From: a virus
Lineage: Duplodnaviria > Heunggongvirae > Uroviricota > Caudoviricetes
Strand: one strand, 5' to 3'
DNA: 44,977 nt
Virus record (IMG/VR): IMGVR_UViG_2563366968_000003
Made by a program: the position numbers and the translations under genes. This document shows positions 6,265 through 40,673 of the stretch, one piece after another; the first letter of the stretch is position 1; each line of letters opens with the position of its first letter. The notes beneath the pieces were generated by a model. That model did no database searches and was not told where the DNA came from. It saw only the letters and a list, made by a program, of their open reading frames with translations.

Positions 6265-6947
6265 TTGTCGGTATACCTCTCTCGTTTGCTCAGTTGTTCA
6301 GGAATATGGTGCAGCAGCTCGCCGTCACCACAGTAAATGGCGGCATGATTCGGCACCGATGAACCAAAACAGCACAACAGCACATCGCCCGGTTGTGCTG
6401 ATGACAACGGCACCTGATACAGCCCCGTGGCCTCCAGATTATCCAGATAGAGATTCTGACCGTTACGCCACCAGTCATCCCCGCGATGAAAATCCGGCAT
6501 CTCAATCCCCGCCAGATGATAAGCATCCCGGAACAGCGTGTAACAGTCCGTCACCCCGTGCTCAAAGCGCCGCCCGGTGAGATGCGGCACACAGCGGAAC
6601 TTATGAATCGTCCCCCGGCAGACCAGCCACCACGGCAAATCACTCTGCACCTGCAGCCGCCGGTCGGCCTCACTCAGCCAGGGCAGACCACCGGGGTGGC
6701 TGTGGACCAGCGCCACAATCTCACCCTGCATTTCTGCCTGCAGCCAGTCTTCCGGCGACAGCCTGAAATACGCCTCCGGCTTACCGGAGATATTCACACA
6801 GGGAAAATATCTTTCCCCTTCCGGCGTTCTCACCACGAAGCCGCACGACTCCGCTGGCGCACATCGCCGGGCGTGCGCCAGAATCGCTGATTCTGTCTCT
6901 GTCATGGGTTTACTGCGAAAGTTTGTTAATGGAAAGGAAGCCGCCAA
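6162..6947 (-). CDS. K: Tail assembly protein K (JAMM/MPN motif HSHPGG plus NlpC/P60-like C-terminus); start codon uncertain
   Basis: ORF 261 aa; HSHPGG metalloprotease-like motif; position between L and I. Confidence 0.75.
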   Translation of the reverse strand: MAASFPLTNFRSKPMTETESAILAHARRCAPAESCGFVVRTPEGERYFPCVNISGKPEAYFRLSPEDWLQAEMQGEIVALVHSHPGGLPWLSEADRRLQVQSDLPWWLVCRGTIHKFRCVPHLTGRRFEHGVTDCYTLFRDAYHLAGIEMPDFHRGDDWWRNGQNLYLDNLEATGLYQVPLSSAQPGDVLLCCFGSSVPNHAAIYCGDGELLHHIPEQLSKRERYTDKWQRRTHSLWRHRAWHASAFTGIYNDLVAASICV

Positions 6948-7608
6948 AGTTACCGACGTTATTGCGGAACTTACATCCGCTCAGGCATTTGCTGCATTTA
7001 TCCTTCGTGATATCGGACGTTGGCTGGTCATATTCATCCGCGACCGCCGGACCGTGATAACCGCACTCATCGCCGCGATAGGTCCAGGTGCAGGTGTTGG
7101 CCAGCATGATACGTCCCGGAAAAACAGCGCCGTCCGTTTCCGTCGACGTGGCCAGTACAAAGGAGGCACTGACCGCGCTCAGTTCGCTGCACTGCTCGAT
7201 GCGCCAGTGGCTGATCACCTCCTGCTCCGGATCGGCGTCTCTGTTTCCGTTGACGAAGTTCACCGCATCCAGAAAACGGGCGTAAACCTTACGCCTGACC
7301 ACCGTTCCGCCGACCAGACTCTGCAGGTCTTCCGCCATCCCGGTGACCATGCCGTGCAGGTTAGAAACCGTCAGTGTCGGACGGGCAGCACTGCCCTTGC
7401 CATTCAGTTCAAATCCCGTCCCCTGAATGGGGTATGCCTGATACTGCCGCCCCTGCCAGGTAACCGGCTCACCTTTTTCGTTCTGCTCATTACAGAAAAA
7501 ATAACGTTCTCCACCGACCTCTGTCAGATCGATTTCCCAGAGCACCACGCTGGCCGACTGCTCCGCACGGGTGCATTCATTCAGTGTTTCCTGCCGGATA
7601 TCCTGCAT
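6910..7608 (-). CDS. L: Minor tail protein L
   Basis: 232 aa, lambda L length and position. Confidence 0.85.
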   Translation of the reverse strand: MQDIRQETLNECTRAEQSASVVLWEIDLTEVGGERYFFCNEQNEKGEPVTWQGRQYQAYPIQGTGFELNGKGSAARPTLTVSNLHGMVTGMAEDLQSLVGGTVVRRKVYARFLDAVNFVNGNRDADPEQEVISHWRIEQCSELSAVSASFVLATSTETDGAVFPGRIMLANTCTWTYRGDECGYHGPAVADEYDQPTSDITKDKCSKCLSGCKFRNNVGNFGGFLSINKLSQ

Positions 7609-21261: not shown

Positions 21262-21495
21262 ATGTCAACGAAGAACAGAACCCGCAGAACAACAACCCGC
21301 AACATCCGCTTTCCTAACCAAATGATTGAACAAATTAACATCGCTCTTGAGCAAAAAGGGTCCGGGAATTTCTCAGCCTGGGTCATTGAAGCCTGCCGCC
21401 GGAGACTGTGCTCAGAAAAAAGAGTTTCTTCTGAAGCAAACAAAGAAAAGAGTGACATTACTGAATTGCTCAGAAAACAGGTCAGACCAGATTGA
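21262..21495 (+). CDS. Hypothetical small protein, possible ribbon-helix-helix fold; homologue of an ORF near the lambda right end
   Basis: 77-aa ORF; DNA 21234-21420 matches recalled lambda right-end sequence then diverges. Confidence 0.4.
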   Translation: MSTKNRTRRTTTRNIRFPNQMIEQINIALEQKGSGNFSAWVIEACRRRLCSEKRVSSEANKEKSDITELLRKQVRPD

Positions 21496-21552
21496 AGCAA
21501 TTTAGATAATCGTGCAGACTACGCCCCCTCATATCACATGGAAGGTTTATCT

Positions 21553-21963
21553 ATGGATCAGGTAGTCATTTTTAAACAAATATTTGATAAAGTTCGAAAC
21601 GATTTAAACTATCAATGGTTTTATTCTGAGCTAAAACGTCACAATGTCTCACATTACATTTACTATTTAGCCACAGAGAATGTTCATATTGTATTAAAAA
21701 ATGATAATACAGTGTTATTAAAGGGCCTAAAAAACATTGTGTCTGTCAAATTTTCAAAGGATAGGCATCTTATAGAAACGACCTCTAATAAGCTGAAATC
21801 CAGAGAGATCACATTTCAGGAATACAGAAGAAACCTTGCTAAAGCAGGAGTTTTTCGGTGGGTTACAAATATCCACGAACAAAAAAGATATTACTATACC
21901 TTTGATAATTCATTACTATTTACTGAAAGCATCCAGAAAACTACACAGATCTTACCACGCTAA
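21553..21963 (+). CDS. ydfO: YdfO-like hypothetical protein (DUF1398-type); start at 21538 or 21553
   Basis: Translation [40 protein letters not shown] is similar to the recalled lambda right-end ORF and to K-12 Qin ydfO. Confidence 0.6.
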
Positions 21964-22114
21964 ACCATAACGTCCGGCTTCTCTCACTCCTGAGCCGGAC
22001 TGCATTGGTTTAATAAAAACCATCAACAATTGTGATTTAGATATTCGGAACCATTCAAATATAACAAAACCCCGTAAAAACGAGGTTTATGGATAAATTT
22101 TATTATTGAATACA

Positions 22115-22291
22115 TCAGATTAAATTAATCTTGACATCATAGCTTTCAAGACCCGTCATTTTTTCCCGTGCGGTAAACTGAATACTGGTAACTTCTTTCC
22201 CGGTCTTTTTCTTAAGTTCAATAATTTTTTTTGTTATATATTCAGAAATATCTGCTTCTGCTTTTGTTTTTAAGTTTTCAATATTCATCAT
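22115..22291 (-). CDS. gnsB: GnsA/GnsB family small protein (58 aa), not in ORF track (<60 aa)
   Basis: Manual translation MMNIENLKTKAEADISEYITKKIIELKKKTGKEVTSIQFTAREKMTGLESYDVKINLI; AAGAGG ribosome-binding site upstream. Confidence 0.75.
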   Translation of the reverse strand: MMNIENLKTKAEADISEYITKKIIELKKKTGKEVTSIQFTAREKMTGLESYDVKINLI

Positions 22292-22322
22292 TTCCTCTTT
22301 TAGTCTGTTATGACTTTCCAGT

Positions 22323-23379
22323 GGCTTTGTTGAATAAATCAGATTTCGGGTAAGTCTCCCCCGTAGCGGGTTGTGTTTTCAGGCAATACGCACGCTTTCA
22401 GGTATACCTGCTTTCGTCATTTTGTTCAGCGCTCGTACCAGGGCCATAGCCTCCGCAACCTGACCATCGTAGTCACGCAGCGTCAGTGAACCCCCGAACA
22501 GCTGTTTTACCCGGTACATCGCCGTTTCCGCTATCGAGCGACGGTTGTAATCTGTTGTCCATTTCCACCGCGCATTACTCCCGGTCATTCGCTGATTAGC
22601 CACTGCACGGTTACGGTCTGCATATTCACCGGGCCAGTAACCCGCACCTTTTCGGGGAGGGATAAGCGCGCTGATTTTCTTACGCCGCAGTTCATCGTGA
22701 CATAGCCGGGTATCGTAAGCGCCATCGGCGGCGGCTGACCTGATTTTCCGGTGGGTTTGCCGGATTAACCCGGGGAAGGCCTCTGAGTCCGTAACGTTGT
22801 TCAGCGACAGGTCAGCGCAGATGATTTCATGTGTTTTACTGTCAACGGCGAGATGCAGCTTACGCCAGATACGGCGGCGTTCCTGGCCATGCTTTTTGAC
22901 TTTCCACTCGCCTTCACCGAAGACCTTCAGCCCGGTGGAATCAATTACCAGGTGTGCGATTTCACCCCGGGTGGGCGTTTTGAAACTGACATTAACCGAC
23001 TTTGCCCGCCTGCTGACACAGCTGTAATCCGGGCAGCGTAGCGGAACGTTCATCAGAGAAAAAATGGAATCAATAAAGCCCTGCGCAGCCCGCAGGGTCA
23101 GCCTGAATACGCGTTTAATGACCAGCACAGTAGTGATGGCAAGGTCAGAATAGCGCTGAGGTCTGCCTCGTGAAGAAGGTGTTGCTGACTCATACCAGGC
23201 CTGAATAGCTTCATCATCCAGCCAGAAAGTTATGGAGCCACGGTTGATGAGGGCTTTATTGTAGGTGGGCCAGTTGGTGATTTTGAACTTTTGCTTTGCC
23301 ACGGAACGGTCTGCGTTGTCGGGAAGATACGTGATCTGATCCTTCAACTCAGCAAAAGTTCGATTTATTCAACAAAGCC
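22323..23379 (-). mobile_element. IS903-group insertion sequence (IS5 family), 1057 bp, with 9-bp target duplication CTTTCCAGT at 22314-22322 and 23380-23388
   Basis: Terminal inverted repeats GGCTTTGTTGAATAAATC at both ends; identical 9-bp direct repeats flank the element. Confidence 0.85.
22379..23347 (-). CDS. IS903-type DDE transposase
   Basis: 322-aa ORF filling the element; C-terminus RRSIAETAMYRVKQLFGGSLTLRDY...AGIPESVRIA typical of the IS903 group. Confidence 0.8.
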   Translation of the reverse strand: MKDQITYLPDNADRSVAKQKFKITNWPTYNKALINRGSITFWLDDEAIQAWYESATPSSRGRPQRYSDLAITTVLVIKRVFRLTLRAAQGFIDSIFSLMNVPLRCPDYSCVSRRAKSVNVSFKTPTRGEIAHLVIDSTGLKVFGEGEWKVKKHGQERRRIWRKLHLAVDSKTHEIICADLSLNNVTDSEAFPGLIRQTHRKIRSAAADGAYDTRLCHDELRRKKISALIPPRKGAGYWPGEYADRNRAVANQRMTGSNARWKWTTDYNRRSIAETAMYRVKQLFGGSLTLRDYDGQVAEAMALVRALNKMTKAGIPESVRIA

Positions 23380-23525
23380 CTTTCCAGTTACACAGTAAGT
23401 CGATTATATGGTGCAAACGTGTAAAAGATAAGATGAAACATCGCAATAATCAACATACGATAGTCTAAATTTTACACAAACAGACAAAGAGAATTTTCCT
23501 GAATTATCAATGCAATAGCATCAAA

Positions 23526-23717
23526 TCAACTCAAGAGCCTTATTGCTGCTTCCAGAATTTCTTCTGAAGTAACATGTCGATCCGCGGCTACATAAATGAC
23601 TTTATGATCTCCGGTCAGAGATGGAAACCCTGCGGCCATTACAGTAAGGTGTGTTTTTTCGCCATTTGGATATTCACGCATGATGGTGTTAACTCCAGTC
23701 ATCGCTGGCACTACCAC
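23526..23717 (-). CDS. ynfN: YnfN-like small protein; start at 23717 or internal Met at 23681 (51 aa)
   Basis: Contains MREYPNGEKTHLTVMAAGFPSLTGDHKVIYVAADRHVTSEEILEAAIRLLS. Confidence 0.5.
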   Translation of the reverse strand: MVVPAMTGVNTIMREYPNGEKTHLTVMAAGFPSLTGDHKVIYVAADRHVTSEEILEAAIRLLS

Positions 23718-24028
23718 TGCTGGTTCAGAGTTAAAAAAAAACTATGATTTTTTTCATGATGTTACCGTAGTATGTGAGTATCCATCGAATAGACACCAAG
23801 CAAAAAAGCTCCCGAAGGAGCCTTCATTTTCACTTTTTTAAATCCAACGACAGACGGCTGGCATTTAAGTATTGTGAAATATTATCAAATGTAATCATCA
23901 TTGATTTACAAAAGATACATTTTGCCCCGAAAGGATTCATGTCAGAAACATCAAAAGATGATGTTCTATACTGGGAACCATGACAACACGGGCATCTAAA
24001 GTGAATATGGTTTGTAATATTGTCTACC

Positions 24029-24241
24029 TCAAAGCGCCACAACATGAACAGCGGCAGGACCTTTAGGTCCGTTCTCAATACCAAATTCAACTTCCTGATT
24101 CTCAGTTAATGTTTTGAAATCGTTGCTCTGAATTGCTGAGAAATGGACAAACACATCTTTGCTGCCATCTTTCGGCGTGATGAAACCAAAACCTTTTTCA
24201 GGGTTAAACCATTTCACTAAACCAGTCATTTTGTTAGACAT
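24029..24241 (-). CDS. cspI: Cold shock protein CspI-like (CspA family)
   Basis: 70 aa [38 protein letters not shown] with RNP motifs. Confidence 0.9.
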
Positions 24242-24604
24242 AATTATTACCTTTTGAAGAAATTAGCCCTTGGGCAGAATGGTCCGAAAAAAAAATATCA
24301 GAGAGAAAAACCAACAAGGAAATCTCAAGAGGTACAAATAATAAAATTATAACAATGACTGCTTCAGATAAATTTGTAACAAACCAGAACACCATTAACG
24401 CATGATTAACCACCCATAGCAAGGATTACTTTTGTAAAGAAAAACACAGCAATGAAAGAATAGCTTTATTTATTAATAAAACGTGTCATTCTGATTAAGA
24501 CCTTTTATCTTACCCTTAAGATTTCAGGAATTTTGGCTCATGGAAGAGTCCTTTTTATTTAAATTTTACATTCCGCGATGTAAATGTTCCGATTTAATAT
24601 TACC

Positions 24605-26632: not shown

Positions 26633-26913
26633 GAGATTGTGGTGCTTTTTGTGGGAGTCATCCACTTACGCACTTTGTTTTGCCATGCCAGCAGTTAGCT
26701 TCTGCTGTAAAACTATTCATGCAGCAAACCTGCACTTCACCACAATGGTTAGCATACTTTTCCTGATTAAGATTTTGCCAAATATGCTAGCCATTGTTTC
26801 ATGTATTGGACCTCCTTACTTTTTATTAAAGAGATCCAATATTCACTACTCTGTCCGTATCTCTACTCAGGCATCAGCCTTCTTCGTTATCGTATACAGA
26901 CGAGCGATGAATT

Positions 26914-27129
26914 TTAATCAGTAATGATGACATTTGCTGCTGCAGGACCTTTAGCACCACTCTCTATAGAGAAGGTAACCTTTTGACCTTCAAATAAGGT
27001 TCGATAATTATCATTCTGAATCGCAGAAAAATGCACAAACACATCTTTACTACCATCAACAGGAGAAATAAAGCCGAAACCTTTATCAGCGTTAAACCAT
27101 TTTACTAAACCAGTCATTTTATTTGACAT
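26914..27129 (-). CDS. cspB: Cold shock protein CspB-like
   Basis: 71 aa [38 protein letters not shown]. Confidence 0.9.
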
Positions 27130-27429
27130 TCTACATTCCTTAACTTGAGCCTTTCGGCATAAATGGTTTGCATAACAGAAACGACTTCGTACTTAATTGG
27201 AGAGACTCAAAGAAGGAATAAGTGAATAACACCTGAAATGAGAACTGCTTTAGTAAACTACTTCGTATATCGTCTGTTCTTCAAACCGACGCAATCATTA
27301 ACGCATAGTTGAACATATGAAGCAATGTTTATTTTAGACATCCAGCCATCTTCAACCCCATCAAAAAACTATAGCTTTCTTCAGGAACGTGTGTATAGTG
27401 CGCCAAGTTATCAGTATTAAGGAATTTTT

Positions 27430-32412: not shown

Positions 32413-33726
32413 TCAATCTTTTTTATCGGGATCAGGCTTCTTTTTAGGTAACTTCGGGGGCTTAACTTGCTGATGACTTTGCGTTCGGCGCGTAAGCCAG
32501 GGATGGTCAGCTTTAGGTTTAACATAGTATTTTGAGCGTAAATCAATACGGGCATTATCCACTCGTTCATGGACACTCTTTTCATCATCCAGTGGTATAG
32601 GCTCCGGGCCATCAACATACTTTTCCCAGCCCAGCGCTTTCCCGTCATACAGAACGTTAATTTCACCGTCAAAGTTCTCGCATACAGTAACAACCGAATG
32701 CCTAAGTCGATATCCCCGGCCCTCACTGCGTACCTGAAACGCACTGCTTTTGTACTGGAAAGTGAGATTTTTAGACAGAACGCGCTTCGCCTGTAGGCTG
32801 AAGATATAACCCAGTTCCTCTTCAGAATGGTGCACATCAAGATGAGCATTATCAGTAGTACGAGGCGACGTAGCGAACCGGTTGTTATAGGCTTCAATAA
32901 AGGTCGGCAACCATGCATTTGCTGTTTCAATATCACTGATATTCTGAAGCCGCATTTCTTTGACCAGCCTGTCCTGTAGTGTCTGATTGGCGCGCTCTAC
33001 CCGCCCTTTTGCCTGCGGGCTGTTGGCATGGATTGGCTCGATGCCCAGTGTCTTTATCGCACGAGTGAACTGGGTCAGCTCACCTTCCCGCTCTGGGTTA
33101 TTTACCCTGAATATACTGTGTCTATCAGAGTAGAGAGCGAGCGGTACGCCATGATCATTAAGGTAACCCCGGAGGGTTTCCATGTAAGCCCGAGTTGTTT
33201 CAGCAGGCACAAAACGCAACGCCATCAACGCACTGGTGGCATCATCAATGAAAACGATCAGTGTACATCTGGGGCCTCGATTTTCAAACCAGTCATGAGG
33301 TGAGCCATCAATCTGGATCAGTTCACCGTAAGATGGTCGTCGCATGCGGCGTTGATATATACGGGCAATTTTACGACGGCGTTCACGCCATAACCCCTCT
33401 TCTATCATCCACTTTCTGAGAGTTTCAACGGATAAAGATAAACCGTGTATCTCGCGCAATTTTTCGCACGCAAACGTAGGTCCAAAATCAGCGTAACGGC
33501 CTTTGAGGAGTGAAATTACTGTTGCTCTGAATTCAGTAGAAAAGGAATTATTAGGACGCTTTCCACGTCGGTGGGAAACCAGACCAGAAGGCCCTTCATT
33601 TCTATACCGTTGCACCAGACGTTTAACCTGCCGAATAGAAATGCCAATGCGTGCCGCAGCTTGTTCCTGAATAATCTGAAGTCGGTGGAGTTCCTTATGA
33701 CTCATCGTAACAGTCTCTTTGATCAT
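32413..33726 (-). CDS. DDE transposase/integrase of the rve superfamily with N-terminal helix-turn-helix (IS481/ISNCY-like); element boundaries not resolved
   Basis: 437 aa; DDE residues in IQIDGSPHD, LALYSDRHSIF and KGRVERANQTLQDRL; N-terminal HTH region. Confidence 0.7.
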   Translation of the reverse strand: MIKETVTMSHKELHRLQIIQEQAAARIGISIRQVKRLVQRYRNEGPSGLVSHRRGKRPNNSFSTEFRATVISLLKGRYADFGPTFACEKLREIHGLSLSVETLRKWMIEEGLWRERRRKIARIYQRRMRRPSYGELIQIDGSPHDWFENRGPRCTLIVFIDDATSALMALRFVPAETTRAYMETLRGYLNDHGVPLALYSDRHSIFRVNNPEREGELTQFTRAIKTLGIEPIHANSPQAKGRVERANQTLQDRLVKEMRLQNISDIETANAWLPTFIEAYNNRFATSPRTTDNAHLDVHHSEEELGYIFSLQAKRVLSKNLTFQYKSSAFQVRSEGRGYRLRHSVVTVCENFDGEINVLYDGKALGWEKYVDGPEPIPLDDEKSVHERVDNARIDLRSKYYVKPKADHPWLTRRTQSHQQVKPPKLPKKKPDPDKKD

Positions 33727-34060
33727 GAAAAATCCCCCAGAGAATTGTCTGGGGACATTTTAGAATGGTTCAAAGGGGACATTACAGCTTGGTGTTAACA
33801 ATAGCCTGCTTCTCCGTGCCTTTCGGCACGTAAGAGGCTAACCTACATGTGTCTAGCATGAAATTGGCCTCAGATTAATGTTAAGCGTCTTGCAGGACGC
33901 GTAATGTTAACTGGGGCTTTTCTCTATCTGCCGTTGGTGTCCATGCCCGAGGCAGATAGCCTCAAGCACCCGCAGTCATTCTACTTAACTAAGATTTCCC
34001 CGCAAACCGTTTTTGTCCAGCACAGTAAATATCCAACTAAACCAATGGAGTTCGCTGTAT

Positions 34061-34351: not shown

Positions 34352-35546
<1,195 letters not shown>

Positions 35547-40620: not shown

Positions 40621-40673
40621 TTTCTGGTGACGTTTGGCGGTATCAGTTTTACTCCGTGACTGCTCTGCCGCCC
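40621..40673 (+). ncRNA. dicF: DicF small RNA (cell-division inhibitor sRNA) with 3' terminator hairpin
   Basis: TTTCTGGTGACGTTTGGCGGTATCAGTTTTACTCCGTGACTGCTCTGCCGCCC followed by TTTTT matches the recalled 53-nt DicF sequence. Confidence 0.85.

Follow-up and report, generated by a model that had tools for sequence, protein, structure and literature searches.

IS903B inserted upstream of gnsB in a Qin-type prophage of Escherichia coli

In the window analyzed here (the whole 44,977-bp stretch of viral DNA, IMG/VR record IMGVR_UViG_2563366968_000003), gnsB and its usual upstream neighbors ynfN and cspI lie on opposite sides of an insertion sequence, which raises the question of what this element is, when it arrived, and what its arrival is likely to have done to gnsB. 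The initial annotation of this DNA described an IS903-group element with 18-bp terminal repeats and a perfect 9-bp target duplication, located 31 bp upstream of gnsB by a clean and probably recent transposition, and suggested that an outward-reading promoter or polarity might alter gnsB expression. We find the description of the element and of its insertion to be accurate, and the outward-reading promoter to be unsupported. The explanation that we hold with high confidence, taken as a whole, is that IS903B transposed into the gnsB leader of a Qin-type prophage, with the expected consequence that gnsB expression would be lowered and decoupled from its native control.

The window consists of a full-length E. 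coli prophage, lambdoid and of the Qin type (Table 1), in which the right-hand modules were named by comparison with strain B379 and with Pfam and Rfam. The gene order ynfO-ydfO-gnsB-ynfN-cspI is identical to that of the Qin prophage of K-12, from which the prophage in the window differs in being full-length, with tail, head, and terminase genes, and in carrying IS903B. The gnsB DNA is identical to that of strain 22AR0118, and its product, WP_001019606.1, has the same accession in K-12. To the right of the IS, the half with the regulatory and lysis genes (23389-44977) is 99.8% identical to B379, whereas the structural half to the left (1-22322) reaches only ≈96 to 97% identity to the best complete genomes, and high identity to both halves is found in no single complete E. 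coli genome. This difference in identity between the halves indicates that the prophage is a mosaic and that its exact host lies outside the complete-genome collection.

Table 1. Coordinates of features around the IS903B insertion and in the surrounding prophage
Feature	Position in window	Strand	Remarks
Tail, tape-measure, head, portal, and terminase genes, then nohA	left part of window
ynfO	21262-21495	+	Pfam
ydfO	21538-21963	+	Pfam
Terminator-like hairpin downstream of gnsB	22067-22088	-	only one between transposase stop and gnsB end
gnsB from first ATG	22115-22291	-
gnsB from second ATG (RefSeq start)	22115-22288	-	57 aa; Pfam GnsAB_toxin (PF08178), 3.3e-35
Target-site duplication, left copy (CTTTCCAGT)	22314-22322		9 bp, directly abuts element
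IS903B, complete	22323-23379	-	1057 bp; full-length match to annotated copies
Terminal inverted repeat, gnsB-proximal (transposase 3' end)	22323-22340	+	18 bp, 0 mismatches
Transposase gene, GTG start	22379-23302	-	307 aa; one long ORF, intact
Transposase gene, longer form in RefSeq annotation, TTG start	22379-23347	-	322 aa
Terminal inverted repeat, ynfN-proximal (transposase 5' end)	23362-23379	-	18 bp, 0 mismatches
Target-site duplication, right copy (CTTTCCAGT)	23380-23388		9 bp, directly abuts element
Predicted native gnsB promoter, TTATCT-17-TATAAT	23403-23431	-	best sigma-70-like site in spacer (consensus scan)
ynfN, K-12-type ORF	23526-23681	-	51 aa
ynfR/ynfQ	between ynfN and cspI
cspI	24029-24241	-
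Lysis, antitermination, hokD/sok, relBE, dicA/dicC/DicF, exonuclease, and integrase modules	beyond cspI

The terminal repeat of the element, GGCTTTGTTGAATAAATC, is present in exactly two copies in the 44,977-bp window, on opposite strands and without a mismatch, where 0.08 chance matches are expected with up to three mismatches allowed; a repeat finder carries the repeat on to 33 nt at lower identity. The transposase matches Pfam DDE_Tnp_1_5 (3.5e-40) and DDE_Tnp_1 (6.6e-33) and scores 357.6 bits against the NCBIfam equivalog NF033579, “IS5 family transposase” (cutoff of 140). Length, inverted repeats, a 9-bp duplication, and a single IS5-family DDE transposase are all as found in the IS903 group, and the assignment to this group can be sharpened. 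All 1057 bp (positions 1-1057 of the element) are 100% identical to at least 18 copies from E. coli chromosomes and plasmids that RefSeq names IS903B, annotated as “IS5-like element IS903B family transposase” and residing in unrelated contexts. Since, in unrelated contexts, these matches end precisely with positions 1 and 1057, the boundaries of the element are independently fixed. At the level of sequence and in RefSeq naming, the isoform is IS903B (IS5 family, IS903 group). The classical IS903 of Tn903 and IS102 of pSC101 are isoforms a few percent divergent from IS903B that have the same architecture as the element in the window and presumably share the terminal repeat given above. RefSeq IS903B copies (e.g., WP_013087110.1 and WP_001118619.1) have the same length, the same 18-bp repeats and 9-bp duplication, and the same 307- or 322-residue DDE transposase, and IS903B is described in the literature as a 1057-bp member of the IS5 family that generates a 9-bp direct repeat (PMC11557698). 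The element itself does not differ from known IS903B; only the site of insertion has no counterpart in the collections searched. The transposase ORF and both element ends are intact, and this copy is presumably active, to judge from its sequence.

Two further observations concern the interior of the element and its neighborhood. A perfect 11-bp inverted repeat (GAACTTTTGCT / AGCAAAAGTTC, at 23351-23361 and 23285-23295) flanks the transposase GTG codon (23302) on both sides; in folds computed for RNA that reads into the IS from outside, it makes up the dominant stem, at an overall z-score of only -1.36. By analogy with IS10 and IS50, this stem may act as a fold-back protection of the transposase gene against read-through activation; because it lies inside sequence that is 100% identical to many IS903B copies, the repeat belongs to IS903B in general and not to this locus. 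A composite transposon was also considered and rejected, since no second IS903 end is found elsewhere in the window.

IS903B is widespread. A copy at ≥80% coverage is found in 1537 of the 5426 complete E. coli genomes, in which its chromosomal places number in the thousands, with up to 47 in a single genome, and similar copies are present on at least 5000 Enterobacterales plasmids, mostly from Klebsiella, followed by Escherichia, Enterobacter, and Salmonella. An identical copy in E. coli AR_0019 is bounded by a 9-bp duplication of its own, TTCTCGATT.

We reconstructed the empty site in silico by deleting the element and one copy of the 9-mer and then searched with a 526-bp stretch across the join. 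This comparison with the K-12 gnsB-ynfN interval, which the initial annotation had proposed as a check, found the full 526 bp with 100% identity in E. coli K-12 MG1655, as well as in C600, ATCC 8739, and many others; the uninterrupted site is present at ≥80% coverage in 2121 of the 5426 complete E. coli genomes. The 9-mer CTTTCCAGT is identical on the two sides of the element; K-12, B379, and 22AR0118 each have it in single copy at the empty site. Since the reconstructed empty site matches K-12 at 100% identity and has the 9-mer only once, the two copies around the element stem from target-site duplication rather than from chance. On either side of the element, the sequence is collinear with that of B379 and K-12, and on this comparison the event is a simple insertion, in which flanking DNA has been neither lost nor rearranged. 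IS903 is known to generate a 9-bp target-site duplication within the motif WTTYA-N9-TRAAW (PMC2577343), to which the flanks of this insertion, TATGA and TACAC, conform at three of five positions each, or 6 of 10 overall; the motif is favored by IS903 but not obligatory, and a match of this kind is nothing unusual. In ≈23 E. coli genomes, the match to the empty site is only partial, and other IS insertions in the ynfN-gnsB spacer may be among these.

With regard to age, none of the 5426 complete E. coli genomes carries IS903B at this site, and the exact left junction has no match in GTDB representative genomes and none in JGI metagenome contigs. The initial annotation had let its reading depend on two points, identical flanking repeats and an element not shared at this site by all relatives; the flanking repeats prove identical, and not one of the 5426 genomes has the element at this site. 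From the uniqueness of the junction, together with a duplication and inverted repeats that are both perfect, a transposase ORF that is intact, and a sequence identical to that of circulating copies, we conclude that the transposition is probably recent and specific to a strain or lineage. Here “recent” denotes absence from all sampled genomes; sister strains lie outside these complete genomes, in which the left half of the prophage finds matches of ≤97%. The insertion is that of a known insertion sequence at a new chromosomal site; it is real and clean, but ordinary.

The position of the element suggests how gnsB might be affected. From the end of the left repeat copy, it is 31 nt to the first gnsB ATG, as initially annotated, and 34 nt to the second ATG (22288), which has the better Shine-Dalgarno spacing and is the start used by RefSeq; the gnsB coding sequence and its Shine-Dalgarno sequence (GAGG) are intact. 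In the empty site, a spacer of ≈170 bp extends from the ynfN stop codon to the gnsB start, and within it the predicted gnsB promoter has a perfect -10 element, TATAAT (23408-23403), which ends 46 nt before the first ATG, and a -35 element that matches the consensus at three of six positions; a stricter promoter scan did not list this site. The predicted transcription start, ≈7 nt past the -10 element, falls at approximately 23394-23397, just outside the right-hand 9-mer, which places the IS at approximately +8 to +17 of the predicted leader. The IS is thereby situated between the predicted -10 box and the gnsB Shine-Dalgarno sequence, where it cuts the predicted promoter off from gnsB, and ynfN and cspI lie across the element, in agreement with the earlier statement that gnsB has been separated from its native upstream region. 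A mapped promoter or transcription start for either gnsB or ynfN was sought in the literature, and nothing usable was found in what was searched.

The transposase gene and gnsB share their direction of transcription, and a hairpin scan found neither a terminator between the transposase stop codon and gnsB nor a terminator-like hairpin on the gene strand of the empty-site ynfN-gnsB spacer. With a codirectional IS between predicted promoter and gene and no terminator found, gnsB would be transcribed only across the IS. The most likely effect is therefore predicted to be a reduced, read-through-dependent expression of gnsB; polarity or dependence on read-through is plausible. A point against a strong effect is that read-through from ynfN or cspI may already supply some of the gnsB transcript in the uninterrupted arrangement. 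A precedent of similar geometry is ompK36 of K. pneumoniae, in which an IS1-type element between the -10 box and the ribosome-binding site, with the coding sequence likewise intact, reduced transcription by ≈199-fold (PMC12086927). That case differs in the IS, the gene, and the species, and the effect on gnsB is a prediction.

Taken together, we envision the following course of events. IS903B transposed into the 5' leader and promoter-proximal region of gnsB, with its DDE transposase cutting CTTTCCAGT with a 9-bp stagger and gap repair yielding the direct repeat, in an event confined to this strain or lineage. From then on, gnsB would be reached only at the far end of a transcript that runs through ≈1.06 kb of IS DNA and that originates from the native upstream promoters or from a weak transposase promoter. 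The net effect would be neither a knock-out nor an activation, but less gnsB expression, decoupled from its native regulation.

Two other accounts of the junction must be weighed against this one. Under the first, an outward-reading or hybrid promoter in the IS end next to gnsB would activate or rewire the gene. In its favor, the transposase gene points toward gnsB, no terminator separates the two, and a hybrid candidate spans the junction, TCAACA-15-CATAAC, with its -35 element in the inverted repeat and its -10 element in the flank. This best candidate is weak, however, matching the consensus at 7 of 12 positions; the stricter scan lists no promoter-like site at this end of the element, and a relaxed scan tops out at 7 to 7.5 of 12. 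In addition, the papers on IS903B that were examined, including PMC11557698, describe no outward promoter for IS903 or IS903B, and the phenotypic effects reported in some of them are those of gene inactivation (mgrB, wcaJ, and rmpA). Activation of gnsB is in our judgment unlikely. The junction could also be thought an assembly artefact, with an IS copy placed at the wrong locus, as repeats are the classic source of mis-joins and IS903B is multicopy in many strains (up to 47 places per genome, as above). A mis-join would not, however, perfectly duplicate 9 bp that are single-copy in the empty site and do so between flanks collinear with K-12, and we regard an artefact as exceedingly improbable.

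It might further be proposed that the spacer between ynfN and gnsB acts as a hot spot for insertion or as a selected target, where insertions recur because silencing or uncoupling gnsB is advantageous. The spacer is AT-rich, with flanks of 33 to 38% GC, and in strain 22AR0118 a separate, independently inserted IS903B of like orientation lies 32 bp farther from gnsB. Yet these are two events only, and the intact site has been kept in 2121 complete E. coli genomes. A gapped search of GTDB representatives and JGI metagenomes, which looked for an IS903 end at 10 to 40 nt past the Shine-Dalgarno region of gnsB, or ≈22 to 52 nt ahead of the first ATG, recovered no further IS903 ends; the published IS903 target motif is matched at only 6 of 10 positions, and, with thousands of chromosomal IS903B places, one coincidence in a spacer of ≈170 bp is unremarkable. 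We consider a hot spot or selected target quite unlikely. Its bolder extension, in which the ynfN-gnsB leader is a recurrently hit, selectable switch, IS903B uncoupling GnsB, a small modulator of membrane lipids and persistence, from the native control of its cold-shock neighborhood while placing the transposase gene under read-through from those promoters, we would offer as a speculation with little chance of being correct. The reading that we prefer is a single, ordinary transposition into the gnsB leader that would lower and decouple gnsB expression.

The 22AR0118 copy has its own history. It lies at 6420-7520 of NZ_CM132257.1, at a point in the ynfN-gnsB spacer that corresponds to 23421/23422 of the window, and is bordered on the left by the 9 bp TGCAAACGT with no repeat on the right, where an IS66-family element takes the place of ynfN; the missing right repeat and this neighbor indicate a later deletion or rearrangement.

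What a change in gnsB expression might mean can be gauged from studies of overexpression. According to Sugai 2001, as cited in 10.1101/2024.03.27.586906, overexpressed GnsB increases unsaturated fatty acids and suppresses the defects of fabA6 and secG-null strains, and GnsB overexpression raised antibiotic persister levels in one preprint (10.1101/310961). Were gnsB expression altered by the insertion, a slight shift in the unsaturated fatty-acid content of the membrane, in cold adaptation, or in persistence would be possible, and any phenotype would be subtle. The chromosome also encodes a paralogue of gnsB, gnsA, and we know of no essential role for gnsB. The insertion matters little beyond strain typing, for which it is usable as a lineage marker, and it opens no long-standing question; it is an example of ongoing IS903B activity in the E. 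coli chromosome, here inside a cryptic or complete Qin-type prophage.

Several features of the surrounding prophage deserve mention in their own right. Just upstream of the K-12-type ynfN start, an A-run at 23733-23741 is A9 in the window, A8 in B379, and A7 in K-12 MG1655; the 76-residue ynfN ORF of RefSeq is open only with A8, and the K-12 copy is flagged “frameshifted.” These differences could be slippage-prone variation or sequencing error. A role for YnfN as an antitoxin partner of GnsB, of the YmcE type, was also considered and rejected, as YnfN matches no Pfam or NCBIfam family and has no evident similarity to YmcE. Other mobile elements are present in the window. A complete IS5 of 1195 bp occupies 34352-35546, with inverted repeats at 34352-34367 and 35531-35546 and a transposase gene at 34498-35514, and another IS5 end at 174-189 indicates that the window begins inside an IS5 (1-189). 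A 437-residue transposase ORF with HTH and rve_3 domains, at 32413-33726, occupies the place at which relatives have an annotated ISNCY family transposase. Finally, Rfam models scoring above the gathering threshold identify two cspA-type thermoregulator leaders, at 24002-24388 (overlapping cspI) and 26898-27290, the sok antitoxin RNA at 33800-33971, and DicF at 40622-40673, a set that is expected for a Qin-type prophage.
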